Shown in pieces: positions 15,694 through 32,142 of a DNA stretch of 64,000 nucleotides. The DNA is from an uncultured Hyphomicrobiales bacterium (GTDB lineage: Bacteria; Pseudomonadota; Alphaproteobacteria; Rhizobiales; Xanthobacteraceae), in contig CAYWNY010000003.1 of NCBI GenBank assembly GCA_964459765.1, forward strand, positions 12,861 to 76,860. The letters are read 5' to 3'. The notes under the pieces are model-generated. The model ran no database searches. It was not told where the DNA came from and was given only the letters and a program-made list of their open reading frames with translations. Made by a program: the position numbers and the translations under genes. Position 1 is the first letter of the stretch. The number at the start of each line of letters is the position of its first letter.

Positions 15694-15888
15694 ATGCCGT
15701 GGAAAGAGATCAAAAGCGCGCCGCCCGATTGCGACCTCGAATTGGCGGTCATCGACCGCGAGGGTACGCATGCGCTTATTTTCGCCTGCCGCCGCCAAGG
15801 CGGGGTGTGGATCAGCGCCAAGACCCATAGGCCGATCGACGTTAGCCCGACACACTGGCGAGAATGGACTGACGGCGCCAGCCTGTGA
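15694..15888 (+). CDS. Small hypothetical protein (64 aa)
   Basis: Internal ATG of track ORF 15556..15888. The product MPWKEIKSAPPDCDLELAVIDREG...PTHWREW lies downstream of a FixK box. I cannot assign a family. Confidence 0.5.
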   Translation: MPWKEIKSAPPDCDLELAVIDREGTHALIFACRRQGGVWISAKTHRPIDVSPTHWREWTDGASL

Positions 15889-15966
15889 CGGGTTGCGGTG
15901 TGGCGGCACCTACCTTAACAAACGGTGGCGATTTTTAATGTTCAGTGTTTCCGACGCCTCGAGCCG

Positions 15967-16308
15967 ATGTGCAAAATCCCGATTGCCTTGCTGTCGTTCG
16001 CGGGTTTGCTTGCCGCGACAGCGACCGCCCCCGCCGAGGAGAGCGCGTTTAGCCCTCTTGCGCTTCACGGCCGCGCGCTAGCCGCAAGGATGTGCGCGCC
16101 GTGTCATGCCATCGGCCGCAGCGGCCCCAGTCCGCACGCCGGCGCGCCGGCGTTCCGCACGCTGAACAGCCGCGCGGACCTCGATACCTTTACCAATCGG
16201 CTGCGCGAGGGCTTGACCAGCGGCCACCCCGACATGCCGACTTTCCGCTTCAGCCCTGACGATGCCCGCGCGCTGACCGCGTACCTGCGCGCGATCCAGG
16301 GGCCTTGA
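15967..16308 (+). CDS. Class I c-type cytochrome (monohaem)
   Basis: It has a signal peptide (MCKIPIALLSFAGLLAATATAPA), the haem-binding motif CAPCH and a distal Met in the DMPTF context. The product is 113 aa. Confidence 0.85.
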   Translation: MCKIPIALLSFAGLLAATATAPAEESAFSPLALHGRALAARMCAPCHAIGRSGPSPHAGAPAFRTLNSRADLDTFTNRLREGLTSGHPDMPTFRFSPDDARALTAYLRAIQGP

Positions 16309-16355: not shown

Positions 16356-16750
16356 TCAGGCGCCGTGCGGCCGGCACGCCTCGCGGATCTTATCCACCAA
16401 GGCGTTGTTGAACAACGGCATCTCGACGACTGGAACCTCGGCCAAGGCGGCGCGCATTGACACCGCTGGATTGTGCTTACTGAGGAGAAGGATCGCCGGA
16501 GTGCGCACATGCCGCTCGCGCAGCCTGGCGATCAATTCCATGCCGTTCATGTCGGGCATTCTTTGATCGACGACCAAGCAGTCGCCGTCCTCAAGCTTGC
16601 CGTCAGCGAACACCTCGGCAGCACCGCCATAGATCCGCACCGCAAAGCCCTCGAGTTCCAGGGAGAATTTCAAGGACAGAAAGCCGCGTCATCGTCGACG
16701 ACGACCACCAATAGCTTTTTCGCCTCTCCCGCTTGGCGCTGTGTTGTCAT
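16356..16750 (-). pseudogene. Single-domain response regulator (FixT-like position downstream of fixLJ), interrupted by one frameshift
   Basis: The ATG at 16750 gives MTTQRQAGEAKKLLVVVVDDDAAF, which stops at 16670-16672. The receiver continues in the -1 frame (track ORF 16356..16673: KFSLELEGFAV...LVVDQRMPDMNG...). The total length of 395 nt is 3n-1, and the break is at a GG/GGG run near 16684. Confidence 0.75.
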
Positions 16751-16809: not shown

Positions 16810-16823
16810 TTGATGTGGCTCAA
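16810..16823. promoter_or_regulatory. Near-consensus FixK box TTGATGTGGCTCAA
   Basis: The TTGA-N6-TCAA core is intact. It lies 60-73 nt upstream of the receiver ATG at 16750 (minus strand). Confidence 0.55.
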
Positions 16824-16939: not shown

Positions 16940-17563
16940 TCAATCGGAGCCGACCATGCGGGCGACGAGCGCCATGCGCACAAGATCCGACAGGCTGCCC
17001 GCCTGCATCTTGTTCATGAGATTGGCGCGATAAATCTCGACGGTACGCGGGCTGATGCCGAGATCGTCGGCGATCTGCTTGTTCGCCCTTCCCGCCACCA
17101 GCCCCACCAACACGTCGCGCTCGCGGTTCGAGAGCGCCGCCAGCCGGCTTTCGATATCGGCGCGCTCGGCCAACTTCTTGGCCTCGTGATCGTGCTGCTT
17201 GAGCGCCGAACGCACGCTCGCCAGCAAGACTTCGTCGTCGAACGGTTTTTCCAGAAAATCGACCGCACCGATCTTCATGGCCTCGACCGCCAGCGGCACA
17301 TCGCCGTGACCGGTAATCACGATCACCGGCACCTCAATCTTCAATTCCCGCAAACGCCGTAGCAGATCGAGCCCGCTCAAGCCGGGCATGCGCATGTCGC
17401 TGATCACGCAGCTCAAACCTTTGACCGGAAGCTTATCGAGAAAGGCGCCGGCCGAAGAGTAGCTTTCCACATCGAGCTGCACGGTGCGTAACAGGAAGAT
17501 CAGCGATTCGCGCAATGCTTCGTCATCGTCGATGACGTGCACGATTCCCCTGTCAACCGACAT
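16940..17563 (-). CDS. fixJ: Response regulator FixJ (receiver + LuxR/FixJ HTH)
   Basis: The sequence runs [21 protein letters not shown]...[13 protein letters not shown]...[36 protein letters not shown]. The start at 17563 overlaps the fixL stop by 11 nt. The longer track ORF N-terminus is out-of-frame fixL sequence. Confidence 0.93.
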
Positions 17564-19073
17564 CGCCGACCTCCTCCTTGCTGACTGTCGGCAAGGTGAA
17601 GCTGAACACGGTCCCTCCGCCCGGATTGGATCGCGCGGCGATGGCGCCGCCATGCGCCTCGACGATGGTGCGCGAAATCGACAGTCCGACCCCCATGCCC
17701 TGGCGCTTGGTGGTGATGAATGGCTGGAATAGCTGGTCGCTGACCTCTGGCGCAATGCCGGTGCCGGTATCGCTGACGCTGATCTCGGTCATGTCGTCAG
17801 CGGCGAGCGCGGTGGCGACGATCAGGTCCCGTCGATCGCAACTTTCCATCGCCTCGATGCCGTTGCGGATCAGATTGAGAATGACCTGCTGAACCTGCAC
17901 TTTGTCGGCCAGCACGAAACCGGTGCCCGGATCGAAATCGAAGCGCACGCGCACGCCCTTGTCCTTGGCGCCGACCAAGGCCAGTGCGCTCGCTTCCTCC
18001 ACGAGCTTGCGCACGTCTTCGACTCGACGTTCGCTTTCGCCGCGCGCAACGAAGTCGCGCAAGCGCCGGATCACTTGCCCGGCGCGCAGCGCCTGCTCGG
18101 CCGCCTTGTCCATGGCCTCGCGCAAAATCCCCGCGCGTTCGTCGGAACTGTCCTCAAGCAGCCGCCGCGATCCCTTCATGTAATTGGCAATCGCCGACAA
18201 TGGCTGATTGAGTTCGTGCGCCAGCGCCGAGGCCATTTCGCCCATCGCGGTCAGCCGCGAGACGTGAACGAGCTCCGACTGCAATTCCTGCAGGCGCGCC
18301 TCGGTCTTCTGGCTCTCGGTCAAGTCGCGGATGAAGCCGGTGAAGAAGCGTCTATGGCCGGTCTTGACCTCGCCGACGCTTAATTCGAGCGGAAAGGTCG
18401 AGCCGTCCCTGCGTTCACCCACGACTATGCGGCCGATGCCGATGATGCGCCGCTCGCCGGTCATTTTGTAGCGCTGCAGATAACTATCATGGTCGTTGCG
18501 ATAGGACGACGGCATGAGCACCTTGACGTTTTGTCCCAAAACCTCGGCCGCCGTATATCCGAACAGCCGCTCGGCGGCCGCGCTGAACGATTGCATGGCG
18601 CCGCGCTCGTCCATGACGATCATGGCATCTGGAACAGTATCGAGGATCGATTTGACATGAGCTTCGCCGGCGATGGCGGCGTCGGCACACGTCGACGCCG
18701 CAATCCGCGAGCGGCGCAACAGGTCGCCCCGCCAAGACGCGCCCAGGCCGACCAGAACAAAAACGAACGCATTGACGATGTCGGCGTTCGTCAGCGCACG
18801 GTGGCTGTAGATCAGAAACTGTCCCGATATCAAGCCGAGAGCGGTCGCCAGAACGCCTGGACCCCAGCCGCCGAATGCCGAACCGATAAGGATGGCCGGG
18901 AAAAAGAAAAGATACGAAGCCTGCCCCTCAAGCTCGCTCCACAGCGCCACGCGGAGGAGAAGACCTGCGCCGATCGCGCCAACGGTAAGGCCGTAGCGCT
19001 CGACAATTCGCCGTGCAGCGGAGGAGCTTGGCGCCGGCTGGGCGGAGTGCAAATGCGGAGCTGCCTCTACCAT
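17553..19073 (-). CDS. fixL: Oxygen-sensor histidine kinase FixL (haem-PAS)
   Basis: 506 aa with N-terminal TM helices. The PAS domain carries the FixL haem pocket signature [50 protein letters not shown]. The H-box is HELNQPL, followed by an HATPase domain. Confidence 0.93.
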
Positions 19074-19232: not shown

Positions 19233-19943
19233 ATGCACCCCCAATACGCAATCCGCACCACACTCCGTACCGACGCAATGCGCAGCCCCGTCGCCGTGAA
19301 TTCAGTTCCCTTGAGCGGCGTAGCAGGCGACCGCGAACCGCTTGCCCAGTCCATGCAGCTGATGGGCGCCGCCATGTCATATCCGCGTAACACCGAAATT
19401 TTCGGCGAAAACGAGCTCGCCGACTACGTCTACAAGGTCGTCAGCGGCAGCGTACGAACCTACAAAATCCTCAGTGACGGCCGCCGTCAGATCGGCGGGT
19501 TCTATCTGCCGGGCGACATTTTCGGCATGCAACTTGCCGACGAGCACGCCTTTTCTGCCGAGGCAATCACCGACACCAAGGTTCTGGTGGTCAAGCGCAG
19601 TGCGTTGACGGCCCTTGCCGGACGCGATGCCGCCGTTGGCCGCGAACTGTTCAACCTCACCAGCCGCGAATTGCGCCGCATGCAGGACCGCATTCTGCTT
19701 CTGATCAAGAGCGCGCAGGAACGCGTGGCAAGCTTCCTCCTGGAAATGGCGGAACGAGCTTGTGCCGGTAATACTGTGGAATTGCCGATGTCGCGTCAGG
19801 ATATTGCGGATTATCTCGGCCTAACCATCGAGACGGTTTCCCGGACGCTAACCGGATTGGAAGGCACGGCCGCCATCGAGGTGCTGACGTCGCGTCGCAT
19901 CGCGTTGCGCAATCGCGCCGCGCTAAGCCGTCTGAACAGCTAA
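19233..19943 (+). CDS. fixK: Crp/Fnr-family transcription factor FixK
   Basis: It has a cNMP-like beta-barrel (YVYKVVSGSVRTYKILSDGRRQIGGFYLPGDIFG) and the HTH SRQDIADYLGLTIETVSRTL, with no N-terminal Cys cluster. It is divergent from fixLJ. The true start may be an internal Met. Confidence 0.88.
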   Translation: MHPQYAIRTTLRTDAMRSPVAVNSVPLSGVAGDREPLAQSMQLMGAAMSYPRNTEIFGENELADYVYKVVSGSVRTYKILSDGRRQIGGFYLPGDIFGMQLADEHAFSAEAITDTKVLVVKRSALTALAGRDAAVGRELFNLTSRELRRMQDRILLLIKSAQERVASFLLEMAERACAGNTVELPMSRQDIADYLGLTIETVSRTLTGLEGTAAIEVLTSRRIALRNRAALSRLNS

Positions 19944-20000: not shown

Positions 20001-20126
20001 GTGCAAGTCCGCGATGTAATGACGCGCAACGTTGTGTGCACAGCGTCGACTGAAACTATCGCGACCGGGCTGATACCGTTTTTGTGGTCGCTCAAAAGCA
20101 GCCAATACGACGATCTCGAAAGCTGA
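20001..20126 (+). pseudogene. Remnant of a CBS-domain protein gene (first ~23 codons only)
   Basis: The GTG at 20001 is preceded by AAGAGGA. The translation VQVRDVMTRNVVCTASTETIATG matches the usual start of single CBS-pair proteins, then diverges and stops after 41 codons. Confidence 0.3.
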
Positions 20127-20133
20127 GCCTCGG

Positions 20134-21672
20134 CTACCGTTTTCCCCATGGGATCCACGACCAGACCCGTTCGTGTCCGTAATAGATCAGTATTTTCGTC
20201 AGCACTTCGGTGACCGCCACCGAGCCGGCGATCTTCGGGCTGCCGGTAATCACGAAAGCAACAACAAAGGTATCGAGGCTGCCGGTCGCGCGCCAGCTCA
20301 CCGCCTTGGCGAGCGACCGCGCATGCGTTTCCGTCCAGCGGGTAAGTTTGCCTTTTGCGGTCGGCAAAACCGCTTCGACGCAGCCCATGCCGACGGTATC
20401 GTACGTTTCCGGATCGATCAGGATGAAGCTTCCGGTGTCTTTGGTTTCGGCGTAGCGGTCGACCGCGATCGGGCGATCGAGTTTGAGCGTGCCCAGGCCG
20501 ATTTCATTCTGCGCAATCGCTTCGGCGTTGATCGAGCGCTGCGTGTCGAGATCGAAGACGCGCACATCCGCTTCGATCTTCGCCGTTACGGTCGTGGTCG
20601 CAAGCTTGAGCAGATAGGTTCGCCCGGGCTTGAGCGCTTCGCTGTGCATCCAGAACACACGCGCAGAAAGCCGATCGGTCATGGTCGGCGCCTGCTCAAG
20701 CCCGACGACGAAGTCGCCGCGCGAGGCATCGATTTGGTCGGCAAAGGTCACCGTGATCGAGCGGCCCGCCGCCGCGCGTTCGAGATCGCCGTCGAAGGTG
20801 GCGATCCGCGCGATCCGCGTGACGCGGCCGGAGGGTAGAATTTTTACCGGCATGCCGGCGCGGACTTCGCCGTGTGTAACTAGGCCGCTATAGCCGCGAA
20901 ACTCGGCATTGGGCCGGCTGACCCATTGAATGGGCAGACGCAACGGCTCCCGATCCGTCGCGTGCGGCGCAGCTTCCGCTTGTTCGAGATGCTGCAGGAG
21001 CGTCGGCCCGCCGTACCACGGCATATGCGGCGAGCGACTGACGATGTTGTCGCCAGTCTTGGCCGCGACCGGGATGGCGACAATCTTCTCGATGCCCAAA
21101 CTCGCCGCAAATCCGCGGAATTGCTTCTCGAGCGCGCGGAACGCGTCTTCCGACCAGCCGACGCGATCCATCTTGTTAACCGTCAGCACAATCTGGCGAA
21201 TGCCGAGCATGGACAGCAGCACGGCATGACGTTTGGTCTGACGGGTCAAACCGTCGTCGCCGCCAAGCAACACCAGTGCGAGATCGGCGACCGACGCGCC
21301 GGTCGCCATGTTGGCGGTGTACTGTTCGTGGCCGGGCGCGTCGATGACGATGAATTTCCGCCGCGCCGTCTCGAAGAAGCGGTAGGCGACGTCGATCGTT
21401 ATCTTCTGCTCGCGCTCGGCGGCAAGGCCGTCCAACAGCAGCGAAAAGTCGAGCTCGCCATTTTGCGTGCCGAATTTTCGTGAATCCACTGCCAGCGCGT
21501 CGAGCTGATCGTCGAACAATTGCTTGGATTCGTAGAGCAGCCGGCCGATCAGCGTCGACTTGCCGTGATCGACAGACCCGCAGGCGATAAAGCGCAGCAG
21601 GCTTTTGCGCCCTTGCTCGCGCAGCAGCACATTGAAATCACGCGCGGCGGGCCGGGCATGGACGTTCATCAA
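20134..21672 (-). CDS. cysN: Sulfate adenylyltransferase subunit 1 (CysN GTPase) fused to a C-terminal DUF2061-like membrane domain; no APS-kinase domain
   Basis: It has the GTPase motifs [14 protein letters not shown] and NKMD, plus EF-Tu-like domains II and III. The last ~65 aa ([26 protein letters not shown]...[21 protein letters not shown]) match the DUF2061 pattern. Confidence 0.88.
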
Positions 21673-22643
21673 AAATAACCTTGCTGTTTTTTGCGTTCCA
21701 TTGATGCGGTGCCGTCGCGATCGATCACGCGCCCGCGCCGCTCCGAGTATGGGCTTGCGAACGCCTCCTGAATGATTTGCGGAACGGTGCTCGCCGTACT
21801 TTCGATGGCGCCGGTCAGCGGATAGCAGCCGAGCGTGCGAAACCGGACCGTCTTGAGTTGCGGACGTTCGCCGGCCTTAAGCGGCAGCCGCTCGTCATCG
21901 ACCATGATAAGCGCGCCGTCACGCTCGACCACCGGACGCGGCGCCGCAAAGTAAAGCGGCACGACGGGAATGCGCTCCTGGTGGATGTAGAACCAGACAT
22001 CGAGCTCGGTCCAATTCGACAGCGGAAAGACCCGGATGCTTTCGCCGCGGCGCTTGCGGCCATTGTAGATCCGCCACGGCTCCGGGCGCTGCCGCTTGGG
22101 ATTCCAAAGATGCTCGGCGGTGCGAAATGAAAACACGCGCTCCTTGGCGCGCGATTTTTCCTCGTCGCGGCGCGCGCCGCCGAAAGCGGCGTCGAAGCGA
22201 TGCTGGTCGAGCGCCTGGCGCAACGCCAGCGTCTTCATCACGTCAGTATGCAGTTCCGATCCGCTGGCGATGGGATTAATGCCGCGCTCCAGACCATCTC
22301 GATTCACATGCACGATCAAATCGAGGTCGAGTTCGCGCACCCGCGCATCGCGAAACGCGATCATCTCGCGAAACTTCCAGGTGGTGTCGATATGCAGCAG
22401 CGGAAACGGCGGCTTCGCCGGATAGAACGCCTTGAGCGCCAGATGCAAGAGCACCGAGGAATCCTTGCCGATCGAATAAAGCATGACCGGATTTTCGGTT
22501 TCGGCCACGGCCTCGCGGATGATGTGGATGCTCTCGGCCTCGAGTTGCTCAAGGTAAGTCAGCGACGGCGCTGCCGGCGCGTCGGCGCCCGCTTGCGCGG
22601 CAGGCTCGGCGTCGTGATCGAGGGTGGGTAAGAGAGCATCCAT
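21669..22643 (-). CDS. cysD: Sulfate adenylyltransferase subunit 2 (CysD)
   Basis: The ATG at 22643 gives MDALLPTL.... It has the PAPS-reductase-fold motif [15 protein letters not shown] and the C-terminal sequence ERKKQQGYF. It overlaps cysN by 4 nt. Confidence 0.93.
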
Positions 22644-22669
22644 GATCGGTCCTGACAAATTCTTAGGTT

Positions 22670-23518
22670 TCAGATCTGCGGCGCCGCGCGGACGATGTGA
22701 CCGTCCGCAGCGAAGTGCAGGCCGCATTCTTTCTTCTCGGCCTCTTCCCACCACCATCGTCCGGCGCGTTCGGGCTCCCCTGGCTCAACCGCACGCGTGC
22801 AAGGCGCGCAGCCGATCGAAAGAAAACCACGGTCATGCAGCGCGTTGTAGGGCACGCCGTGGGCCTGCACGAATGCCAGCGTCCGTTCGCGCGTCCAGTC
22901 GAACAACGGGTTGGCCTTGATCAGGCCGTGCTGCGCGTCGAACGAAACCGCAGCGAAGCGCGCGCGGTCGGCGGATTGATCGGCGCGAATGCCGGTGATC
23001 CACGCGGCGCTATCCCTGAGCGCGCGGGCAAGCGGCGCAACCTTGCGTACCGCGCAGCATTCCCGGCGCGCGGCGACGGAGGCACGGAATCCATCGATGC
23101 CTTGCCGGCCAACCAAAGCTTCGACGCTGGCGTGGTGCGGCGTGAAGGCGCGGATGCGGGTTGCATAGCGGCGTTCGGTCGCCGCCCACACCGCATGCGT
23201 TTCGGGAAAAAGCCGTCCGGTGTCGAGCGTCACGACATCGATCGCCAGCGCCCGTGCAAATATCGCATGTGCAATGGCCTGATCCTCGAGGCCAAAACTC
23301 GTCGTAAAGGTGATAGGGCCGGCGACCTGATCGCGGACGGCAGCCAGGCGGCCGAACAAGTCGCGTGTGCCAAACGTGAGCGCTAAAGCGGTTGCGACGT
23401 CCGCCGCGTTCGCTTGGGCGGTCGCTAGGTTGACGGCTTCGGGAACGGCAGTGGTTTCGGCGACGGGATCGCCACGAAGCGCCGGGGGCGCGGCGCTCGA
23501 CTGCACAATTTCGGACAT
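22670..23518 (-). CDS. cysH: Assimilatory adenylyl-sulfate (APS)/PAPS reductase CysH, Fe-S type
   Basis: It has the ECGLH C-terminal motif and the cysteine pairs RRECCAVRK and GCAPCT, which are characteristic of 4Fe-4S APS reductases. The start is taken at MSEIVQ..., placed by ORF-track arithmetic. My own base count there differs by 1 nt. Confidence 0.85.
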
Positions 23519-23562
23519 TTTAGAGAGGGCCCTCACAGCAACTTGAGCCCACCATGTAGAAT

Positions 23563-23588
23563 CAAAAACAAAGGCCGCCAAGCCTTTG
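23563..23588 (-). terminator. Rho-independent terminator downstream of the Pat-like gene
   Basis: The minus strand reads CAAAGGC-TTGGCG-GCCTTTG followed by TTTTTGAT, a 7-bp stem plus a U tract about 90 nt after the stop at 23677. Confidence 0.5.
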
Positions 23589-23676
23589 GCAAGGAAAGAA
23601 ATTTCCTTCCGCGTCGCATGCGCGGGACAGATTTCAATTTCAACTTTTGACCCAAAAGCGGAACAGGAGCTTGCGC

Positions 23677-26370
23677 CTAGAGCTGCAGGCTTACCGGCGC
23701 CGTCGAAGGATCCTCCGGGTCGGATCCGATCTGAAAGCCGAGCTCGCGGCACATCTCAAGCATACCGGCGTTTTCGTGCAGCACCTGTCCATGCATGGAA
23801 CGCAGTCCCTCGGCCCGGGCGTATTCGATGATCAATTGCATCAGCGCCCAGCCAAGCCCCCGCCCCTGCTGATCGGAGCGCACCAGGACCGCGTATTCGC
23901 CGCTCTCGTAGTTCGCGTCGGAATGCAGGCGCGCCACCCCGAGCATGGCGCCGGTTGCCTCGTCGACGGCGATTAACGCCATGGCCCGCGCGTAATCGAT
24001 TTGCGTAAAGCGCGCGATGAAGGCGTGCCCGAAACTCTTCACCGGCGCGAAAAACCGTAAGCGCAGATCGTCCTGCGTGACCGCGGCGAAGAATGCCGGA
24101 TAGAGCGGCTCGTCCTCCGGTCGGACCGGGCGAACGAAAACTGAGCCGCCGTCGCGCAAAGTCACGTGTCGCTCCCATTCGGTCGGATAGGGCCGGATGG
24201 CGAAGCGCGGATTGCCGCGCCGCCCGCGCGACACGCCGTCGACCGGAGCGATCAACATGCGCGCGTCCACGGCGATGACGCCGGTCTCGTCGGCGAGCAC
24301 CGGATTGAGGTCGATTTCGCGGACTTCCGGAAAATCCGCCACCAATTGCGATAGCTTCACCAATACCAGTTCGATCGCCCGCTCGTCGGCCGCCGGCACG
24401 TTGCGGTAAGCCTTCAAGATGCGCGACACGCGGGTGCGCGCGATCAACCGGCCGGCCAATTCGAGGTCGAGCGGCGGCAGGGCCAGCGCCTTATCGCTGA
24501 TCACTTCGACCGCCGTGCCGCCCTGCCCGAAGACGATCACCGGACCGAAGGTCGGGTCGTCGGCAACGCCGATAATCAGCTCGCGCGCCTTCGGCAGCAC
24601 GATCATCGGGAACACCGCGACGCCGGCAATGCGCGCGTTCGGCCGCGCTATCCGCGCTTTTTGCAAAATGTCAGCGGCAGCCTCGCGGACGGCCCGCTCA
24701 CTGGTGAGATTGAGCCGCACACCGCCGATCTCCGACTTGTGAATAATGTCAGGCGACTGGATTTTTAGGACGACGGGGGTGCCTTGGCCCAGAAACACTT
24801 TCGCCGCTGCCACCGCCTCGTCGGCGTTGCGCGCGAGCACCGCAGGCGTCATCGCAATTCCATAGGCGGAGAACAATGCCGACAGCTCGATCGGGTCGAG
24901 CCAAGTCCGCTTGTCGCGCAGCACCCCGTCGATCACCGTCCGCGCGGCGGCGACATCAGGCGAGAAATCCTTCGGCAAACTCGGCGGCGTCGCCATCAGC
25001 TGCTCCCGCGCTTGCCGGTAGCGCACCAGATGCGTGAAGCCAAAGACCGCACCCGTTTCCGTCGCATAACTCGGAATGCCGGCGGTGGCGAACGCGCCGT
25101 CAGCGGCATCGGCTTGCCCGATCCACATGGCAAAGACCGGCTTGGGCGGAAAATATTTTTTGCGTTCGCGCTCGACGACCCCCACCACCGCTTTCGCCGC
25201 GTCGGCCGCAGAAGCCAGCGCGGTCGGTACGTTCATCACCAGCACCGCATCGTTGGCTTTGTCTTGCAGCAGTAATTCTAGTGCCTTGGTGTATCGGGCA
25301 TCGTCGGCGTCGCCAGCGATATCGACCGGATTGGCGCGTGACCAGATCGGCGGTAACGCCGCGTCAAGCTTCTGGAAGGTCTCCGGCGAGATCGCGGCGA
25401 GTTCGCCGCCGAGATCGACCAGACGATCCACCGCCAGCACGCCGACCCCGCCGCCGTTGGTCAGAACCGCAAGCCGGTTGCCGCCAAGCGCAGTGAGCCG
25501 GCTGAGCGTTTCCGCAGCCGCAAACAATTCGTCGAGATCGATGACGCGCAGCAGCCCGGCACGCCAGAATGCCGCGTCGTAAACCGCATCAGAACCGGCG
25601 AGCGCTCCCGTATGGGTCAGCGCAGCCTTGGCGCCCTGCGCGTGCCGCCCCGATTTGATCACCAGCACCGGCTTGGCACGCGCCGCCGCGCGCGCCGCCG
25701 ACATGAATTTGCGCGCATCGCGGATCGATTCGACATAAAGCAGGATCGCGCGGGTAAAGCGATCCAGCGCGAAATAATCGAGCAGGTCGGCAAAATCCAC
25801 GTCGATGCTGTCGCCGATCGAAACGATCGCGGAAAAGCCGACGCTGCGTGCGGTCGCCCATTCCGCCAAGGCGGTGGCAATGGCGCCGGATTGCGAAATC
25901 ACGGCAAGATCGCCGGCGGGCGGCGCTGAAGCGGTAAAGCTGGCGTTGAGCTTGGCGCGCGGCACGAGGACGCCGATGCAATTCGGGCCGATCAAGCGCA
26001 GTCCGGCCGCGCGCGCTTCGTTAGCGCTTTGCGCGGCGAGCGAGCCCGGCCCGTGTCCGAGCCCGGCGGTGACAATGATGCCGCCCGCCGTTCCTTTGCG
26101 CGCCGCTGCGGCGACCGTTCCGGGCACGTCTGCCGGCGGCACGGCGATGACGGCGAGCTCCGGCGTTTCGGGCAATGCGTCGTAGCTTTTGACGGCGCGG
26201 ATGCCTTCAATCTCGTCGTAGCGCGGATTGACGAGATAGACCGGGCCAGGAAAGCCGGACCGGCGCAGATTTTCGATCACCGCCCGCCCGGTGGACGTTT
26301 TGCGCGGCGAGGCACCGACCACAGCCACGGATCGCGGCGCGAACAGGTTGTCCAGGCGATAGGTTGACAT
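23677..26370 (-). CDS. Pat/YfiQ-like protein lysine acetyltransferase (NDP-forming acyl-CoA synthetase-like domains + C-terminal GNAT)
   Basis: 897 aa with an N-terminal CoA-binding domain (VAVVGASPRK...), succinyl-CoA-synthetase-like and ATP-grasp regions, and a C-terminal GNAT (QQGRGLGWALMQLIIEYA). Confidence 0.85.
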   Translation of the reverse strand: MSTYRLDNLFAPRSVAVVGASPRKTSTGRAVIENLRRSGFPGPVYLVNPRYDEIEGIRAVKSYDALPETPELAVIAVPPADVPGTVAAAARKGTAGGIIVTAGLGHGPGSLAAQSANEARAAGLRLIGPNCIGVLVPRAKLNASFTASAPPAGDLAVISQSGAIATALAEWATARSVGFSAIVSIGDSIDVDFADLLDYFALDRFTRAILLYVESIRDARKFMSAARAAARAKPVLVIKSGRHAQGAKAALTHTGALAGSDAVYDAAFWRAGLLRVIDLDELFAAAETLSRLTALGGNRLAVLTNGGGVGVLAVDRLVDLGGELAAISPETFQKLDAALPPIWSRANPVDIAGDADDARYTKALELLLQDKANDAVLVMNVPTALASAADAAKAVVGVVERERKKYFPPKPVFAMWIGQADAADGAFATAGIPSYATETGAVFGFTHLVRYRQAREQLMATPPSLPKDFSPDVAAARTVIDGVLRDKRTWLDPIELSALFSAYGIAMTPAVLARNADEAVAAAKVFLGQGTPVVLKIQSPDIIHKSEIGGVRLNLTSERAVREAAADILQKARIARPNARIAGVAVFPMIVLPKARELIIGVADDPTFGPVIVFGQGGTAVEVISDKALALPPLDLELAGRLIARTRVSRILKAYRNVPAADERAIELVLVKLSQLVADFPEVREIDLNPVLADETGVIAVDARMLIAPVDGVSRGRRGNPRFAIRPYPTEWERHVTLRDGGSVFVRPVRPEDEPLYPAFFAAVTQDDLRLRFFAPVKSFGHAFIARFTQIDYARAMALIAVDEATGAMLGVARLHSDANYESGEYAVLVRSDQQGRGLGWALMQLIIEYARAEGLRSMHGQVLHENAGMLEMCRELGFQIGSDPEDPSTAPVSLQL

Positions 26371-26424: not shown

Positions 26425-26438
26425 TTGATCCAGATCAA
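26425..26438. promoter_or_regulatory. Perfect FixK/FNR-type box TTGATCCAGATCAA
   Basis: This is an exact TTGAT-N4-ATCAA palindrome in the divergent intergenic region. It lies about 61 nt from the Pat-like ATG (26370, minus strand) and about 70 nt from the small-ORF ATG (26502, plus strand). Confidence 0.75.
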
Positions 26439-26501
26439 AGGTTGCCTGCCGTCGTAACGACATCATGACATCAAAGAGGAGAAACAAAGAGGAGAAAAAC
26501 C

Positions 26502-26684
26502 ATGCCGGTTTTTGATGCACTTATCGTCGCTGCCATTGTCGCGTTCTTTGTCATCTTCGGCGCTGTGTTGGCCTGGGCCGAACGTCAAACCCGCAATCCG
26601 ACGCCGACGCCGCGGCCCACGGTCGCGCCGGCAACGGATGATACGCATTCGACCGTGACGCCACTGCGCAAAGAGGCCGCTTGA
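26502..26684 (+). CDS. Small single-pass membrane protein (60 aa), hypothetical
   Basis: The TM helix in MPVFDALIVAAIVAFFVIFGAVLAWA is followed by a Pro/Thr-rich tail. A very strong, tandemly duplicated SD (CAAAGAGGAGAAA x2, 26472-26497) precedes it, and a FixK box lies upstream. Confidence 0.55.
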   Translation: MPVFDALIVAAIVAFFVIFGAVLAWAERQTRNPTPTPRPTVAPATDDTHSTVTPLRKEAA

Positions 26685-26721
26685 ACTAATCGATCCGGCC
26701 GCGCCAGCGGCCGGCTTGCGC

Positions 26722-27705
26722 TCACGGTACGAGGACGGCGGCGCCCTGCAACCGCCCGGCCCGCAGATCCGAAAGCGCCTCGTTGGCGCGGACGAGCGCA
26801 TAGGGCATTGTTTGCGTCACAATGCCGGCTTTCGGCACCACGCTGAAAAACTCCTCGCCGTCGGCGCGCGTCAGATTGGCGACGGAGAGAACTTCGCGCT
26901 CCTCCCAAAGGATGCAATAGGGAAAGCTCGGAATATCGCTCATGTGAATGCCGGCGCAGACCACGCGCCCGCCCTTGCGCACGGCGCGCAGCGCCGCCGG
27001 CACCAGCGCGCCGACCGGCGCATATATAATGGCGCAGTCCAGTTCGTCCGGCGGCTTGTCGTCGGAACTGCCGGCCCAACGGGCGCCGAGCTTCCGGGCG
27101 AAGGTTTGCGCCGCAGTATCGCCTTCGCGGGTGAAGGCGAACACCTCACGGCCTTGCCAGCGCGCCACCTGCGCGATGATGTGCGCCGCGGCGCCAAATC
27201 CAAAAAGCCCGATGTTCTTGCCATCGCCGGCCATGCGCAGCGAACGCCAGCCGATCAAGCCGGCGCATAACAGCGGTGCGCTCGCCACAGCGTCGCTGCC
27301 TTCCGGCAATCGAAAAACAAACCGCGCATCGGCGACGGTGTGCGTGGCGTAGCCGCCGTCGCGGGTATAGCCGGTGAAAAGCGGATGGTCGCAGAGATTT
27401 TCCCGGCCGGCGCGGCAATAGCGACAGCGCCCGCAGGTCTGGCCGAGCCACGGAATACCGACGCGCATACCAACGGCGAGTTGATCAACTCCACCGCCGA
27501 CCAAATCAACGCGACCGACGATTTCGTGACCGGGAATGATCGGGAGTTTCGGATCCGGCAGTTCGCCGTCGACGACATGAAGATCGGTGCGGCAAACGCC
27601 GCAGGCCTCGACGCGGACGCGCACTTGACCCGGCGCGGGCACCGGATCAGGCCGCTGGACAAGTTTCAGTTGCTCTCCCGGCCGCTCCAGAACCATCGCT
27701 CGCAT
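26722..27705 (-). CDS. Zinc-dependent alcohol dehydrogenase (MDR family)
   Basis: 327 aa with the Zn motifs CGVCRTDLH and GHEIVG, a structural-Zn Cys cluster (CGRCRYCRAGRENLC) and a Rossmann GLFGFGAAAH. Confidence 0.88.
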   Translation of the reverse strand: MRAMVLERPGEQLKLVQRPDPVPAPGQVRVRVEACGVCRTDLHVVDGELPDPKLPIIPGHEIVGRVDLVGGGVDQLAVGMRVGIPWLGQTCGRCRYCRAGRENLCDHPLFTGYTRDGGYATHTVADARFVFRLPEGSDAVASAPLLCAGLIGWRSLRMAGDGKNIGLFGFGAAAHIIAQVARWQGREVFAFTREGDTAAQTFARKLGARWAGSSDDKPPDELDCAIIYAPVGALVPAALRAVRKGGRVVCAGIHMSDIPSFPYCILWEEREVLSVANLTRADGEEFFSVVPKAGIVTQTMPYALVRANEALSDLRAGRLQGAAVLVP

Positions 27706-27741
27706 GGCTTTGGCATCTCCGGCTACGCCGCCCTAGGCCAT

Positions 27742-28383
27742 TCATTCCATAAGCACATAGGTGCCCGGCGCATCGTCGAGCGGCGGATAACCCGCCGCGC
27801 CCATCGCCGGCGGCGACACCGGCGCGCCTGAATGCCGCTCGAGCCAGCCCATCCACGCCGGCCACCACGAGCCATCTTTGATCTGCGCTTCCGCATAGAA
27901 GTGATCCGGATCGTGGAAGTGGCCATTGGCACCCATGGCGGCGATGCGGAAGCTGCGGTTTGGATGACCGGGCTCCGACACGATGCCGGCGTTGTGACCG
28001 CCGGCCGTGAGCACAAAAGTCACTTCCGATTCCACTTGCAGATTGATCTTGTAAACCGACCGCCACGGCGCGACGTGATCGCGTTCGGTGCCGACGGCGA
28101 ACATCGGCACGTGAATGTCGGTGAGCGCCACCGGGCCGTCGCCGGCCATGAAATGGCCTTCGGAAAGATCGTTGCCGAGAAACAGGTCGCGCAAATATTC
28201 GGAATGCATGCGATAGGGCAAGCGCGTGGCATCGACGTTCCACGCCATCAGGTCGTTCATCGGCTGCCGTTCACCAAGAAAATAATCATGGACGAGGCGC
28301 GACCAAACGAGATCGTTCGAGCGCAGCATCTGAAACGCGCCCGCCATCTGCCGGCTGTCGAGAAAGCCCTGTTCCCACATCAT
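27742..28383 (-). pseudogene. 3' remnant of a class I poly(3-hydroxyalkanoate) synthase (PhaC) gene
   Basis: The 213 aa (FLDSRQMAGAFQMLRSNDLVWSRLVHDYFLG...VGTERDHVAPW...TAGGHNAGIV) cover only the C-terminal third, which holds the Asp and His of the catalytic triad. The Cys-box and N-terminal ~350 aa are absent, and the next gene starts about 150 nt upstream. Confidence 0.7.
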
Positions 28384-28530
28384 GTCTTCGAGGAAGGCGA
28401 TCTGGCGGGACGGCCGGTCGCAGCGCCGGTAGTGCCGGCGTCAGACCCGGTGCCGAGGTCAATTCTTCGAGTTTTTGTTCGGGATCGCCCATCGTTTTAC
28501 TTCCAGCTGCGAAAATCGTTGATAGGACCG

Positions 28531-28977
28531 TCAGCCGACCAGGTGTTTTTCGATGTCCCAGACCGGGTGCTTGGTCAAATCCTTGCCGACTTCGGCAATG
28601 ATGCGGCTCTTTACGTCGGCGTGAAAGACGTGGCGCAGTTCGGCAAGCGTGCGTGGCGGCGCCACCACGACGATGGCCTTCGCCCCGCCGCCCTGCACCA
28701 GCTTTTCGAGTGCCGCCGCGACGTGATCGGCAAAGACGTTCTTTTCAAGCCGGTGCCAGTCGGTCGTCTCCACGCTGCTGCGCGCAGATCCTACGCTCTG
28801 AAACGCGCGGCCGGGCCGGTCGGTGCCTTGATCGTGCGTCGGCGGATCAGCTTCGGCAAAAACCCGCTCCACCCGCAGGTTGGGAAACTTGCTGTCGCCC
28901 TTGTTGCGCAGGAACAGGGCCTTTTGTCCGTCACCGACAAAAACCAATGCGTCTTGCGGAATACTGAGCTTATCCAT
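28531..28977 (-). CDS. Host-attachment family protein (Pfam Host_attach-like; bacterial eRF1-like fold family)
   Basis: 148 aa. MDKLSIPQDALVFVGDGQKALFLRNKGD...VVVAPPRTLAELRHVFHADVKSRIIAEVGKDLTKHPVWDIEKHL closely follows the pattern of proteins annotated as host attachment protein in rhizobia. Confidence 0.75.
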   Translation of the reverse strand: MDKLSIPQDALVFVGDGQKALFLRNKGDSKFPNLRVERVFAEADPPTHDQGTDRPGRAFQSVGSARSSVETTDWHRLEKNVFADHVAAALEKLVQGGGAKAIVVVAPPRTLAELRHVFHADVKSRIIAEVGKDLTKHPVWDIEKHLVG

Positions 28978-29077
28978 GCGTCACCTTAACCTGCTGGCAA
29001 ATGCCCAATCAGCATTCATTTGAAAGCGCGGTGTGTCGATCTCGTGACCGCGCAGGAGTTATGTGCACCCGTTTGCA

Positions 29078-30118
29078 TTATTCGGCTTCGATCAACACCT
29101 TGAGCGCGTGCGTGCTCGCGGCATGGCCGAACGTATCGTAGGCGTCGATAATCTGGTCGAGCTTGAAACGATGCGTGATCAGCCGCGTGGGATCGATCTT
29201 GCCGGATTGTACCGTCTTCAACAGCATCGGCGTAGTCACCGTATCGACCAGCCGGGTGGTGATGACGATGTTCTGCGACCACAGGCGCTCGAGATGCAGG
29301 TCGACCTTGATGCCATGCACGCCGACGTTGGCGATGGTGCCACCGGGCGCGATGATGTTTTCGCACAGTACGAATGTGTCCGGAATACCGACGGCCTCTA
29401 TCGCGGTGTCAACGCCACGCCCGCCTGTCATCTGCATGACCGTGTCGGCGGCCTTGCCGTCTTTGCTGTTGATCGCGGCCGTGGCGCCAAAACGTTTGGC
29501 CGTCTCAAGCCGATAGTCGTCAATATCGATCATGATGATTTCGGCTGGGGAGTAGAACTGGGCTGTCAACAGCGCGGCAAGCCCGATCGGGCCGGCGCCG
29601 ACGATGGCGACGGTGTCGCCTGGCTGCACCTTGCCGTTGAGCACGCCGCATTCGAAGCCGGTCGGCAAAATATCACTCAACATCACGAGAGCGTCTTCCG
29701 CCGCCCCTTCCGGCACGTGGTAGAGACTGGTGTCGGCATACGGCGTGCGCACATATTGTGATTGCGTGCCGTCGATTTCGTTGCCGAGAATCCAACCGCC
29801 GGTCGTGCAATGCGAATACATGCCGCGCCGGCAATATTCGCAGCGGCCGCATGCCGAAATGCAAGAGATCAGAACGTGGTCGTTCGGCCGGAAGGCGGTG
29901 ACACCGGGTCCGATGCTATGCACAACGCCGACGCCTTCGTGGCCGAGGATGCGCCCGGGCTTGCAGGTCGGCACGTCGCCTTTGAGGATGTGCAGATCGG
30001 TGCCGCAGATCGTCGTCTTGATGATTTTTACGATCGCCTCCGTAGGGTCGATGATTGTCGGCATCGGACGGTCTTGTAACGATTTTTTGCCAGGACCCTC
30101 ATATACAAGCGCCTTCAT
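29078..30118 (-). CDS. Zinc-dependent NAD(P) alcohol dehydrogenase (secondary-ADH-like)
   Basis: The ATG at 30118 gives MKALVYEGPGKK.... It has the motifs ICGTDLH and GHEGVG and the Rossmann VAIVGAGPIGL. The product is 346 aa. Confidence 0.88.
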   Translation of the reverse strand: MKALVYEGPGKKSLQDRPMPTIIDPTEAIVKIIKTTICGTDLHILKGDVPTCKPGRILGHEGVGVVHSIGPGVTAFRPNDHVLISCISACGRCEYCRRGMYSHCTTGGWILGNEIDGTQSQYVRTPYADTSLYHVPEGAAEDALVMLSDILPTGFECGVLNGKVQPGDTVAIVGAGPIGLAALLTAQFYSPAEIIMIDIDDYRLETAKRFGATAAINSKDGKAADTVMQMTGGRGVDTAIEAVGIPDTFVLCENIIAPGGTIANVGVHGIKVDLHLERLWSQNIVITTRLVDTVTTPMLLKTVQSGKIDPTRLITHRFKLDQIIDAYDTFGHAASTHALKVLIEAE

Positions 30119-30212
30119 GTGAGCCTCGATGACCTGCTGTTGTGGCAGACGCGCTGACGCGCTGCGACCGGAAAGCATAAAATTGATGATAGTCGTTCTG
30201 GCGGCCTGCTCC

Positions 30213-30226
30213 TTGATCTAGGTCAG
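30213..30226. promoter_or_regulatory. Near-consensus FixK box TTGATCTAGGTCAG
   Basis: The left half-site is perfect and the right half is GTCAG (one mismatch to the degenerate RTCAA). It lies about 100 nt upstream of the ADH ATG at 30118, in a divergent intergenic region. Confidence 0.45.
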
Positions 30227-30490
30227 AATGGCGCCTTCTAAACTTTGCTTGGTTGCACCGCAGCGGTCGGGATTTGCGAGCCATGCAGCAGGCTTTGGAG
30301 TACAGCTATACGCGTGAAGGCATCAGGGCGCGCTTAAGCCGCGTCGGCGCCATCAAGAGCCGGTGGTGGATCCGGATTGGAAACTTTTGCGATCGGCATG
30401 AGTGCCGCCGCGGTCGCCTTCGCGGCGGGCTTTGCATTGAAGGCGTTAGTTCACGCGTCCGTCCTGTAGCAGTTTCTCAAATCGTCGAGG

Positions 30491-30745
30491 ATGACAATGG
30501 AGCTCAGCGCAGCAATTTATACACGCCGCTCGGCGCGCGAATACACCGCGCAACCGGTTGACGACAAAACCATTCGCGAACTGATCGATGCCGCGGTGCA
30601 GGCGCCGAGCGCGGTCAATAGACAGCCTTGGTCGTTTTGCGTCGTGCGCGACAAAGCGCTCCTTACTCGCATATCTCGCGCCGCCAAAGCGCACATCTTG
30701 AAAAGCACGCCAGTCGGGCTCTTGTCGCCCACGCGCCTGTGCTGA
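30491..30745 (+). pseudogene. Nitroreductase-family gene remnant (N-terminal ~80 codons; a further fragment in another frame to about 30800)
   Basis: MELSAAIYTRRSAREYTAQPVDDKTIRELIDAAVQAPSAVNRQPWSF is a typical nitroreductase N-terminus. The ORF then stops, and the conserved HAPVLIVIC block appears in a different frame (track ORF 30628..30927) and runs into the convergent HPF gene. Confidence 0.6.
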
Positions 30746-30805
30746 TTGTGATTTGCATTGTCGCAGAAACGTCACGGGCGACCGAAGACACCGCCCGTCA
30801 AAAAA

Positions 30806-31375
30806 TCACGCCCGCAATCCGTGTTTGCCGGCGAGCCGCACTGTCGTCGCTTGCGGTCCCTTGTCGCCCGGCTCTTCCGCGAAGGCCACTCGCGTGCCGA
30901 CCTGCAACTTGGCAAATCCGTCGTTGAGCACGCTGTTGCGGTGAAAGTAGATTTCCTGGCCGTCGCCCGCCTCGAGGAAGCCGAATTCGCCCGAAGGATC
31001 GAGCCGCACCACCGTCCCGATCGGCGGTCGCTCGTCATGTTTCACATCGCCGCGCGTCAGCCGTACTTTGTCTTCCAGCTGGCGGCGGGCATGCTTAAAG
31101 GCATCGCTGATGGCGGACGTCAGGTCAGAATGGCGTTCGTCGTGCGTCGGCGTGCGCGAGACATTCACTTCCCGGCCCTGCGGCAGCGCGAGACGAATGT
31201 GCACTTCATACAGCCCACCTTTGTGGTGATGTTGGCTGGGTGCTTTGACCACGACCCGGCAGGCAGTGATGCGGCCGAAGAGTTCTTCGAGCTGGCCGAT
31301 GTGCGCGCTGATCACGTCCTCGATCTGCGGCGTGCCAGCCATGCCTTGAAACTGGATTTCAGGGGGCGTTTCCAT
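30806..31375 (-). CDS. HPF/RaiA-family ribosome-associated domain fused to a C-terminal cold-shock (OB) domain
   Basis: The N-terminal ~110 aa (ITACRVVVKAPSQHHHKGGLYEVHIRLALPQGREVNV...AFKHARRQLED) fit the S30AE/HPF pattern. The C-terminal part (GTVVRLDPSGEFGFLEAGDGQEIYFHRNSV...VGTRVAF) fits a cold-shock domain. The ATG at 31375 has GGGAGA 9 nt upstream, and the track ORF extends to GTG 31399. Confidence 0.7.
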   Translation of the reverse strand: METPPEIQFQGMAGTPQIEDVISAHIGQLEELFGRITACRVVVKAPSQHHHKGGLYEVHIRLALPQGREVNVSRTPTHDERHSDLTSAISDAFKHARRQLEDKVRLTRGDVKHDERPPIGTVVRLDPSGEFGFLEAGDGQEIYFHRNSVLNDGFAKLQVGTRVAFAEEPGDKGPQATTVRLAGKHGLRA

Positions 31376-31443
31376 GTTCGACATTCTCCCGCTAAGCACG
31401 TGTTCTCGCCGTTCATCTATCCGCAGCGCTGCGTGACCTGGCT

Positions 31444-31457
31444 TTGATCTCTATCAA
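31444..31457. promoter_or_regulatory. Perfect FixK/FNR-type box TTGATCTCTATCAA
   Basis: This is an exact TTGAT-N4-ATCAA palindrome centred about 75 nt upstream of the HPF-CSD ATG at 31375 (minus strand). Confidence 0.75.
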
Positions 31458-31538
31458 AGTGCGCCCAAATGCGGCTTTACTCAGGCCGCCAGTTCTCCGA
31501 GACGCGTTCCTTTTCTCCGCCGGCGGTCGGAGTAGAGG

Positions 31539-31877
31539 TTATTTCTTCAGCGTTGCGATGTAAGTGGCGATGTCGTCGGCAGCCATTCGGCTCAACGGCA
31601 GTTCCGGCATCTTCGGGTGCGGATCGAGCAGGAAGTGCAAGAGTTTATCCGTATCGAACCCCGGCGATTGGGCGATCTGGGCAAGCGGCGGCACATCGGC
31701 GACCGCACGCTGCTGGTCGGGCGCAACCAGATGGCACGAGGCGCACCACCTGTTCGCAAGATCGAGACCGTGATCCGGTTTGCCTTTGTAGCCGGGCTCT
31801 ATTTCGGCCGCATTGCCTGCCGACACGCCGAAAAGAATGACCGATGCGGCCAGTACCGCAAGCCCGTAATTGGGCAT
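31539..31877 (-). CDS. Class I c-type cytochrome (monohaem)
   Basis: The ATG at 31877 gives MPNYGLAVLAASVILFGVSAGNA (signal peptide). It has the haem motif CASCH and a distal Met in HPKMPEL. The product is 112 aa. Confidence 0.85.
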   Translation of the reverse strand: MPNYGLAVLAASVILFGVSAGNAAEIEPGYKGKPDHGLDLANRWCASCHLVAPDQQRAVADVPPLAQIAQSPGFDTDKLLHFLLDPHPKMPELPLSRMAADDIATYIATLKK

Positions 31878-31972
31878 TGAATGCCTCTTTCCCAAAAATT
31901 CACGGGCGGCCGTCACCGCCGCCTCGCCGAATCGGACGCCAAAACACCTTACCGTCGTTCTCGGCGACGTCT

Positions 31973-31986
31973 CGTGACCTGGATCA
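31973..31986. promoter_or_regulatory. Weak FixK-like box (minus strand TTGATCCAGGTCAC)
   Basis: One perfect half-site and one 3/5 half-site lie about 100 nt upstream of the cytochrome c ATG at 31877. Confidence 0.3.
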
Positions 31987-32142
31987 AAAAGCGTCTATAG
32001 GCCGAGGCCGCCTGCACGACAGCACGCAGACAACCGCGAGCCCGCCGCCATCTACTCCGAATATCTTTTATGTACAGCGTGTTATGATTCGCCAGCGGCG
32101 GCGGCCGCCTGTAAGCAGCCGCGAATTTGCGGGAGGTTTCAG

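Follow-up and report, generated by a model that had tools for sequence, protein, structure and literature searches.

A close known counterpart of the genes examined here, which are grouped around a fixLJ–fixK module and its putative binding sites in a 64,000-nucleotide stretch of an uncultured Xanthobacteraceae genome (the window), is the FixLJ–FixK2 regulon of Bradyrhizobium. Both have the sensor/regulator module, the palindromic box TTGAT-N4-ATCAA (the FixK-type box or anaerobox) and targets grouped in 'hypoxia' clusters. A core FixK regulon predicted for the Bradyrhizobiaceae comprises FixLJ, ABC transporters, Hsp20, phosphoketolase, CBS proteins, class I cytochrome c and Zn-dependent alcohol dehydrogenase (Zn-ADH) (Dufour et al. 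2010, PMC2908626). The table of microoxia-induced B. diazoefficiens proteins in Fernandez et al. (2019, PMC6515984) includes the receiver bll2758, CBS proteins, the host-attachment protein bll4645, the nitroreductase blr4652 and AdhP (bll5655), and some of its entries carry a '+' in the last column, which we read as FixK2 control. In Bradyrhizobium these target classes, to which phaC also belongs, coexist with the cbb3-type oxidase (PMC6515984, PMC2908626). Another close system is the lxa locus of Burkholderia cenocepacia, a set of about 50 genes that is linked to FNR/Anr boxes and needed for anoxic survival; it holds Zn-ADHs, polyhydroxyalkanoate (PHA) synthase, nitroreductase and alpha-crystallin, and its authors compared it with the DosR regulon of mycobacteria (Sass et al. 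2013, PMC3721108).

We consider it likely, with a probability of about 0.75, that the region studied here is the local core of a FixLJ–FixK anaerobox regulon whose cbb3 arm has been deleted and whose persistence or energy-saving arm is left, itself partly eroded. The island is real and largely an ordinary low-oxygen gene set; its unusual side is the deleted oxidase genes and the broken members. The boxed gene classes were already known as FixK2-controlled or microoxia-induced from the Bradyrhizobium entries just cited, the comparison with DosR had been made for the lxa locus, and our findings leave the accepted picture of how FixK regulons work unchanged. What is new is that the cbb3 cluster is missing at its exact syntenic site and that, judging from the locus phylogeny, the genus has seen at least two losses of cbb3 with fixLJ–fixK kept; new too are the breakage of box-linked genes and a nonsense codon in the canonical hpf. 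This repeated loss and a conserved anaerobox before the gene for an HPFcold-type ribosome hibernation factor are the most informative points.

The window belongs to contig C3 of the source genome (G000), a 4.2-Mb assembly of 319 contigs with 63% GC that resembles a metagenome-assembled genome (MAG); it is 93.9% complete and 0.69% contaminated, and its closest relatives are soil metagenome-assembled Xanthobacteraceae. In what follows, G001, G010, G016, G017, G021 and G024 are genomes of the same genus, L numbers denote loci and C numbers contigs of G000. Families were assigned by Pfam and NCBIfam profile searches. Whole-island synteny is not kept among relatives outside the fixLJK core, and 'island' is therefore a description of this genome and not of a mobile or conserved unit.

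As initially annotated, the window has perfect TTGAT-N4-ATCAA palindromes at 15646, 26425 and 31444; it contains no others. Dinucleotide-preserving shuffles (n = 100) give an expectation of 0.02, and 0 of 100 shuffles reach three; the chance expectation first put forward was about 0.06. A genome-wide scan, which the initial annotation had proposed as a check, returns 12 perfect boxes against 0.6 expected from base composition. Eight of the 12 are called intergenic by the rough gene caller used there, and at least two more, including that at 15646, fall in promoter DNA that it miscalled. The looser pattern TTGA-N6-TCAA adds the site at 16810 and an unrelated one at 1649.

The perfect box TTGATCCAAATCAA (15646..15659) is centred 44 nt 5' of the ATG of a gene for a 63-aa protein, and TTGATCTCTATCAA (31444..31457) is centred 66 nt 5' of the HPFcold ATG. 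TTGATCCAGATCAA (26425..26438) is common to the divergent genes for a Pat-like acetyltransferase (61 nt to ATG) and a 60-aa protein (70 nt to ATG). The near-consensus box TTGATGTGGCTCAA (16810..16823) has one mismatch and is centred 66 nt 5' of the ATG of a receiver gene. Two further sites had been listed as a near-consensus and a weak box; both are real, but both are degenerate, and the second starts at 31974 and not 31973. They are TTGATCTAGGTCAG (30213..30226), in the intergenic region between the second alcohol dehydrogenase gene (ADH2) and a VIT1 remnant, and GTGACCTGGATCAA (31974..31987), between a cytochrome c gene and a divergently oriented gene for an AMP-dependent ligase. Both deviate from the strict palindrome at two positions and from the tolerant FixK2-type consensus TTGAY-N4-RTCAA at one. 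Since this genome has about 23 sites per 64 kb that differ from the strict form at two positions, these two boxes are weak alone. The tolerant consensus with at most one mismatch has 19 sites in the window against 4.4 expected. All six boxes are intergenic and upstream of start codons near fixLJ–fixK, as had been claimed, with centres 44–103 nt before the starts; the four best sites, at 44–70 nt, are compatible with leaders of 0–30 nt if the boxes are centred near −41.5.

The regulators themselves are intact. The fixJ gene (16940..17554, minus strand; receiver plus LuxR/GerE helix-turn-helix) is 75–79% identical to its same-genus orthologues, fixL (17553..19073, minus strand) encodes a DUF4118 membrane part followed by PAS, HisKA and HATPase domains and is a predicted heme-PAS histidine kinase, and fixK (19233..19943, plus strand) encodes a CRP/FNR protein with cNMP-binding and HTH_Crp_2 domains. 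All three keep their synteny and show 70–85% identity with genus orthologues. FixK carries ETVSR in its recognition helix and lacks a cluster of cysteines at the N terminus; its best NCBIfam match is the Caulobacter FixK equivalog, below cut-off (234.8 versus 300 bits). Intact fixL, fixJ and fixK together with a significant excess of palindromes in promoters agree with a FixK-type anaerobox regulon.

The boxes are kept before orthologous genes. Upstream of the 63-aa gene a perfect box is found in 11 of 11 same-genus orthologues, always centred 43–45 nt before the ATG, and the nitroreductase gene has one in three of three. A FixT-like receiver has a box with at most one mismatch in nine of 11 orthologous promoters of the genus; for the Pat gene the figure is three of seven same-genus orthologues, and for a baeRF12/Host_attach gene it is two of five orthologous loci. 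The region equivalent to 30213 has boxes with 0–1 mismatch at locus L033, and boxes are present at the same place by the counterpart of the 60-aa gene in G017. For HPFcold, 39 of the 80 species carrying the fusion gene have TTGA-N6-TCAA without mismatch in the 250 bp before it, including members of the Rhodospirillales, Caulobacteraceae and Geminicoccaceae as well as Devosia and Methyloceanibacter. The fixL, fixJ and fixK promoters have no boxes among the same-genus orthologues and so provide an internal negative control for the footprinting. The view of the initial annotation that these are FixK/FNR-type anaeroboxes beside an intact fixLJ–fixK module thus holds: their number is far above chance and they are kept before orthologues.

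The cbb3 oxidase is missing. Neither ccoN (TIGR00780) nor ccoO (PF02433) was found in the 93.9%-complete genome; the oxidases present are one of aa3/bo3 type, one COX1 fragment and one cytochrome bd. No good box precedes cydA (C194) or the complete aa3/bo3-type oxidase, which lies a short way beyond the window; only two-mismatch sites at the chance level were found there. In G017, fixK is followed in turn by CBS/BON, cytochrome c, a perfect box, ccoN, FixO, a 78-aa open reading frame (ORF), FixP, a 518-aa ORF, FixH, FixI, an adenylate-cyclase/tetratricopeptide repeat (TPR) gene, Pat, boxes and the 60-aa gene (the FixO, FixP, FixH and FixI neighbours were confirmed there), and in G017, G021 and G010 alike 9–11 kb with ccoN separates fixK from Pat. 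In the window, on one uninterrupted contig, fixK is followed by a 20-codon CBS stub, then by an opposite-strand cysN(-DUF2061)-cysD-cysH operon (20134..23752, minus strand), and then by Pat; by synteny the operon stands at the place of the relatives' cytochrome c, fixNOQP, fixGHI and adenylate-cyclase/TPR genes. CysN was identified by Pfam, and cysD and cysH were named from ORF translations only. G016, G001 and G024 (the last 93% complete in 3 contigs) likewise have fixK–Pat distances of 1–2 kb and no ccoN anywhere. Because the contig is uninterrupted and the same adjacency recurs in these three genomes, the absence of cbb3 at the ancestral site is no assembly gap.

A maximum-likelihood tree of FixL, FixJ and Pat groups G000 with G016 (support 92), and G001 with G024 (100), the latter pair with the cbb3-positive G010 (90). 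Since the genomes that lack cbb3 fall on separate sides of this locus tree, cbb3 would have been lost at least twice with fixLJ–fixK kept. Control of cbb3, the hallmark FixK target, is thus absent from the source genome; the regulon is nevertheless counted as a FixK regulon, because cbb3 is a typical and not a defining target.

The second informative point concerns a fusion of an S30AE domain with a cold-shock domain (30806..31384, minus strand; Pfam PF02482 + PF00313). Such a protein of Coxiella burnetii, CBU_0020, has been named 'HPFcold' (PDB 9T0Z/9TZE; Nat Commun 2026;17:7049, PMC13392368). By cryo-electron microscopy it lies in the 30S decoding centre and its cold-shock domain clamps the anti-Shine-Dalgarno sequence, and the family occurs in all major proteobacterial classes, Alphaproteobacteria included (PMC13392368). 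A profile of 37 orthologues of the window protein aligns at positions 2–181 of 188 with PDB 9t0z chain 9, a 183-aa chain titled 'Ribosome hibernation promoting factor' (E = 3e-56). The AlphaFold (AF2) model of the window protein (predicted local distance difference test score, pLDDT, 76.9) combines a b-a-b-b-b-a HPF fold with a five-stranded barrel C-terminal to it, with Foldseek target TM-scores of 0.83–0.85 to RaiA/HPF and 0.82 to cold-shock proteins (Csp). The two proteins have the same domain layout, align over their full length and have the cold-shock domain motifs GxFGF and EIYFHRNSV in common, which places the window protein in the two-domain HPFcold family; ribosome binding by it is predicted from the Coxiella protein. 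Because the fusion matches HPFcold, the label 'translation-dormancy' that it had been given has structural backing, and its description as a hibernation factor agrees with a family seen by cryo-electron microscopy to hibernate ribosomes (PMC13392368); the family itself is no longer new.

The window gene differs from its Coxiella counterpart in standing behind a perfect FixK-type box, as do half of the alphaproteobacterial orthologues examined, whereas the Coxiella paper describes no regulation. We found no link of HPFcold to FixK, FNR or hypoxia in the literature searched, nor any report there of HPFcold or Pat/Acs (acetyl-CoA synthetase) as FixK targets. A second difference is that the canonical hpf of the source genome, located between rpoN and ptsN (C46, equal to L082:1461-1740), is a pseudogene: it has lost 21 nt in frame, and a TAT-to-TAA change has put a stop at a tyrosine codon that is kept by the three orthologues compared, while hpf is without stops in 15 of 15 same-genus relatives searched. 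With canonical hpf carrying a nonsense codon, HPFcold is the only intact S30AE-family protein detected in the genome. The conserved anaerobox before HPFcold suggests that low oxygen triggers this hibernation factor. In G017 (L087:4307-5632), HPFcold and a divergent Hsp20/alpha-crystallin gene share one perfect box, another point of likeness to lxa and DosR, which both include an alpha-crystallin.

Several members of the island are broken. The FixT-like single-domain receiver downstream of fixJ (16356..16750, minus strand) has a 4-nt deletion near 16684, as seen in a DNA alignment with the G017 orthologue, and its remaining frame covers only positions 16–89 of the Response_reg profile. Directly after fixK lies a CBS/BON remnant of 20 codons (20001..20060, plus strand), detected by tblastn with the G024 orthologue, the intact gene encoding CBS plus BON. 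A 5'-truncated phaC paralogue (27742..28404, minus strand) retains the last ~215 codons (TIGR01838 positions 318–531 of 532), which align at 37% identity with residues 272–488 of the housekeeping phaC that is intact on C296; it begins about 50 residues past the position of the GYCVGG nucleophile box of that paralogue and so is no full-length PHA synthase, which would have GxCxGG. A VIT1/CCC1 remnant (30286..30454, plus strand) consists of residues 1–19, 192–204 and 212–239 of 243 plus a frameshift (tblastn with the L033 orthologue; PF01988). The nitroreductase remnant (30497..30800, plus strand) has about 77 N-terminal codons and a shifted HAPVLIVIC block, and is truncated where it meets the HPFcold gene's 3' end. 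Remnants of phaC, nitroreductase and CBS-domain genes had been recognised initially; the first two are as described, while the CBS remnant is the 20-codon stub outside 26425–31986 and VIT1 had been missed. The gene between ADH2 and nitroreductase had been a candidate CBS remnant and is VIT1 instead. Outside the window, polyphosphate kinase 2 (PPK2; C44:5567-6392, minus strand), behind a perfect box at C44:6415, falls into two overlapping reading frames, which match Pfam positions 5–122 and 113–219, and is probably a frameshift pseudogene. A divergent 102-aa membrane ORF lies beside it.

In all, about six of 20 box-associated loci are broken, against 0–3 of about 73 background genes once probe artefacts are removed (Fisher p 0.003–0.01). 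The background was scored with 672 probe proteins from same-genus loci, most 'partial' calls being due to over-extended probe ORFs or to frameshifts in the long-read relatives. That decay is concentrated in the regulon is no more than suggestive, the sample being small and the two gene sets having been ascertained differently. Frameshifts in fixL (L053), Pat (L090) and nitroreductase (L033) of long-read soil MAG relatives are probably assembly indel errors, and for this reason 'intact in relatives' was judged over several genomes.

This excess of broken loci, the frameshift in the FixT-like feedback receiver and the two degenerate boxes could also mean that the whole microoxic programme was abandoned after cbb3 was lost, its boxes and targets being decaying leftovers with no present function. 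We regard such a relic regulon as improbable, though it fares best among the alternatives. Neutral decay would quickly erase 10-of-10 palindromes, of which 12 remain, and fixL, fixJ and fixK as well as HPFcold, Pat, Acs, both ADHs and three cytochromes are intact. The HPFcold gene of G024, which lacks cbb3 independently, retains its perfect box (locus L010), and at least two losses of cbb3 with fixLJK retained argue for a role that does not depend on cbb3.

Somewhat less credible is the proposal that the boxes are read by another CRP/FNR regulator or tied to another signal, such as nitric oxide, redox state or carbon starvation. In its favour, helix-turn-helix proteins of the CRP family number about 13 in this genome, and FNR, FixK, NnrR and AadR use a common box in other alphaproteobacteria (PMC2908626, PMC4999443). 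Besides FixK, however, only one of these proteins (C119:3418-4206, plus strand) shows an E--SR helix (ENVSR), all remaining paralogues being without it; this protein is generic CRP-like (best NCBIfam match 71 bits, to CRP), and the cysteines near its N terminus belong to an extension that is itself doubtful. A second FNR-type regulator as reader of the boxes was accordingly kept only as a minor rival. The boxes moreover cluster around fixLJ–fixK in an arrangement kept in the genus. That the truncations and the missing cbb3 are artefacts of assembly or binning, through chimeric joins or collapsed contigs, is very improbable despite the 319 contigs of a MAG-like assembly, given that GC content is even across the whole region, that gene order flanking every junction agrees with relatives, that three other species, one of them in 3 contigs, have the same fixK–Pat adjacency without cbb3, that the lesions differ in type (4-nt deletion, internal deletion, 5' and 3' truncations, nonsense codon) and that background genes are mostly intact.

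Against the reading of the region as a regulon core that lost its cbb3 arm stand the following points. Oxygen dependence, FixK binding and physiological role are carried over by homology with Bradyrhizobium and Sinorhizobium. The −41.5 (class II) geometry is putative, the box positions being no more than consistent with it, and two of the six boxes (30213 and 31974) are degenerate. The CRP-like paralogue on C119 could read the same boxes. With many members broken, the feedback receiver among them, the regulon may be on its way out rather than in use; the lesions were read from the assembled sequence. Finally, with 6% of the genome missing, a second cbb3 copy may lie on an unbinned contig.

What is shown here is the sequence features and how far they are conserved, the deletions, and the families to which the proteins belong. 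If the region is indeed a FixLJ–FixK regulon core, low oxygen would lead the PAS kinase FixL to phosphorylate FixJ, which would switch on fixK, and dimers of FixK, bound to TTGAT-N4-ATCAA some 40 nt ahead of the transcription starts, would activate the genes next to these boxes. One output would be HPFcold, expected to plug the decoding centre and clamp the anti-Shine-Dalgarno end of 16S rRNA. Others would be the Pat-type acetyltransferase, with Acs encoded elsewhere; the two Zn-ADHs and the eRF1-like baeRF12 protein, probably from one unit; and three small c-type cytochromes, a phasin and two small proteins. The usual respiratory output fixNOQP–fixGHI has been deleted from the ancestral fixK–Pat interval, so that the persistence or energy-saving arm would remain, this in turn having been partly eroded through the breakage of the FixT-like receiver, phaC paralogue, nitroreductase, VIT1, CBS/BON and PPK2.

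Set against Bradyrhizobium, the island has in common with the entries listed for that genus Zn-ADH, CBS, class I cytochrome c, nitroreductase, host-attachment protein, a fixJ-adjacent receiver, polyhydroxybutyrate (PHB) genes and Hsp20. It differs in that fixNOQP/fixGHIS are deleted at the syntenic site and several members are pseudogenes. In addition, fixK is here divergent from fixL, whereas in B. diazoefficiens it presumably lies downstream of the receiver. The lxa locus is alike in being a clustered, box-associated set with Zn-ADHs, PHA synthase and nitroreductase, and in Burkholderia it serves persistence rather than growth; unlike the island, it is betaproteobacterial and rich in universal stress proteins, its regulator is not established as FixK and no hibernation factor has been reported in it. 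The lxa locus also has deletion phenotypes, whereas the island is known here from its genes.

The DosR (DevR) system of M. tuberculosis likewise has a sensor kinase that uses heme and a response regulator of LuxR type on top. Among its outputs are a CBS protein, a storage-lipid synthase and Rv0079, a translation inhibitor of the S30AE family. Nitroreductases, alpha-crystallin and universal stress proteins also belong to them (PMC3721108). DosR, however, acts through a different DNA motif, while here the motif is the FNR/FixK palindrome, the regulators are FixLJ and FixK, and the CRP/FNR protein FixK is interposed as a second tier; the island is thus no DosR regulon, there is no system-level homology, and the likeness is functional only. 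The initial annotation had seen a dormancy programme of the DosR type more than a respiratory regulon. The non-respiratory content is borne out locally and genome-wide, no cbb3 having been found in the genome and no good box at cydA or the aa3-type oxidase; 'DosR-type' is an analogy and not a finding, reasonable but published before for the lxa locus, and 'dormancy programme' is a putative functional analogy. The non-respiratory look stems from the deletion of fixNOQP–GHI at the syntenic site, which the initial annotation had not seen, and not from a different type of regulon. The same gene classes are ordinary in Bradyrhizobium.

More tentatively, FixLJ–FixK may have been uncoupled from respiration in part of the genus and now be a dedicated low-oxygen-to-persistence switch with HPFcold at its centre, HPFcold being a conserved member of hypoxia regulons across the Alphaproteobacteria; we hold this to be possible and rather doubtful. 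Were it true, HPFcold would gain its first physiological trigger. FixLJ–FixK is usually explained by control of cbb3, and genomes without cbb3 that keep the cascade and its boxes are a natural experiment on its other roles. The surviving outputs point to energy saving, through ribosome hibernation, control of Acs by acetylation, NADH-recycling dehydrogenases, and PHB and polyphosphate proteins, and for soil ecology they hint at how abundant uncultured Xanthobacteraceae outlast anoxic spells.

The remaining genes of the island were identified as follows; family searches agree with the identities first given for the Pat-like protein, the two Zn-ADHs, the host-attachment protein, the HPF-cold-shock fusion and the two cytochromes, the 60-aa ORF being identified by reading and by its G017 orthologue. 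The conserved 63-aa protein (15697..15888, plus strand) has orthologues in the genus and no Pfam or NCBIfam match. The fixed box distance before its ATG suggests that its mRNA is leaderless or near-leaderless. A paralogue at C242:1871-2134 has a one-mismatch box. The first c-type cytochrome gene (15925..16308, plus strand; CxxCH, Pfam Cytochrome_CBB3/Cytochrom_C) is syntenic in the genus and probably co-transcribed with the 63-aa gene; the second (31539..31877, minus strand) was assigned by Pfam.

The Pat-like protein (23677..26370, minus strand) has the Pfam domain order CoA_binding_2, Succ_CoA_lig, Ligase_CoA_2, ATP-grasp_5 and C-terminal GNAT Acetyltransf_1, the Pat-type architecture of SePat and RpPat (an NDP-forming acyl-CoA-synthetase-like region plus a C-terminal GNAT domain). 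Its GNAT part matches the NCBIfam Pat model weakly, and its acetyltransferase activity and substrates are predicted. Overlapping the start codon of Pat is TTGACATTGATTAA (26364-26377), a site that differs from the tolerant consensus at one position; it could be due to chance, a repressing site or the −35 element of the divergent gene. That divergent gene encodes the 60-aa single-helix membrane protein (26502..26684, plus strand); it has a strong Shine-Dalgarno sequence and a 45% identical counterpart at the same place in G017. Directly before its ATG, CAAAGAGGAGAAA occurs twice in tandem (26472-26497), a duplicated Shine-Dalgarno block.

Zn-ADH 1 (26722..27705, minus strand) matches TIGR02822 above cut-off, and Zn-ADH 2 (29078..30118, minus strand) was assigned by Pfam and NCBIfam. 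Between them, the product of 28531..28977 (minus strand) belongs to the baeRF family 12/Host_attach families, scoring 144.4 bits to PF18856 and 136.7 bits to PF10116 against gathering cut-offs of 27.7 and 26.7; the release-factor (eRF1)-like role of baeRF12 is a published prediction. No minus-strand terminator-like site was found between 30178 and 27705, and ADH2 (first), baeRF12, the phaC remnant and ADH1 probably form one transcription unit behind the degenerate 30213 box. In the cys operon, CysN (20134-21672, minus strand) has a C-terminal DUF2061 membrane domain (Pfam) in place of the adenosine 5'-phosphosulfate (APS) kinase domain.

Elsewhere in the genome, perfect boxes precede genes for acetyl-CoA synthetase (C90:4428-6437, minus strand), phasin (C149:4614-5030, plus strand), a third small c-type cytochrome, a DUF3891 protein, an FtsX-type permease and the split PPK2. 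Acetyl-CoA synthetase is the classical Pat substrate, and the two boxes would place Pat and Acs under common control. Targets of one-mismatch boxes number about 25, part of which is covered by the Pfam annotation. Within the window, one-mismatch boxes also occur at 36232, 39546 and 51238, in the adjoining general-stress (EcfG/PhyR) region.

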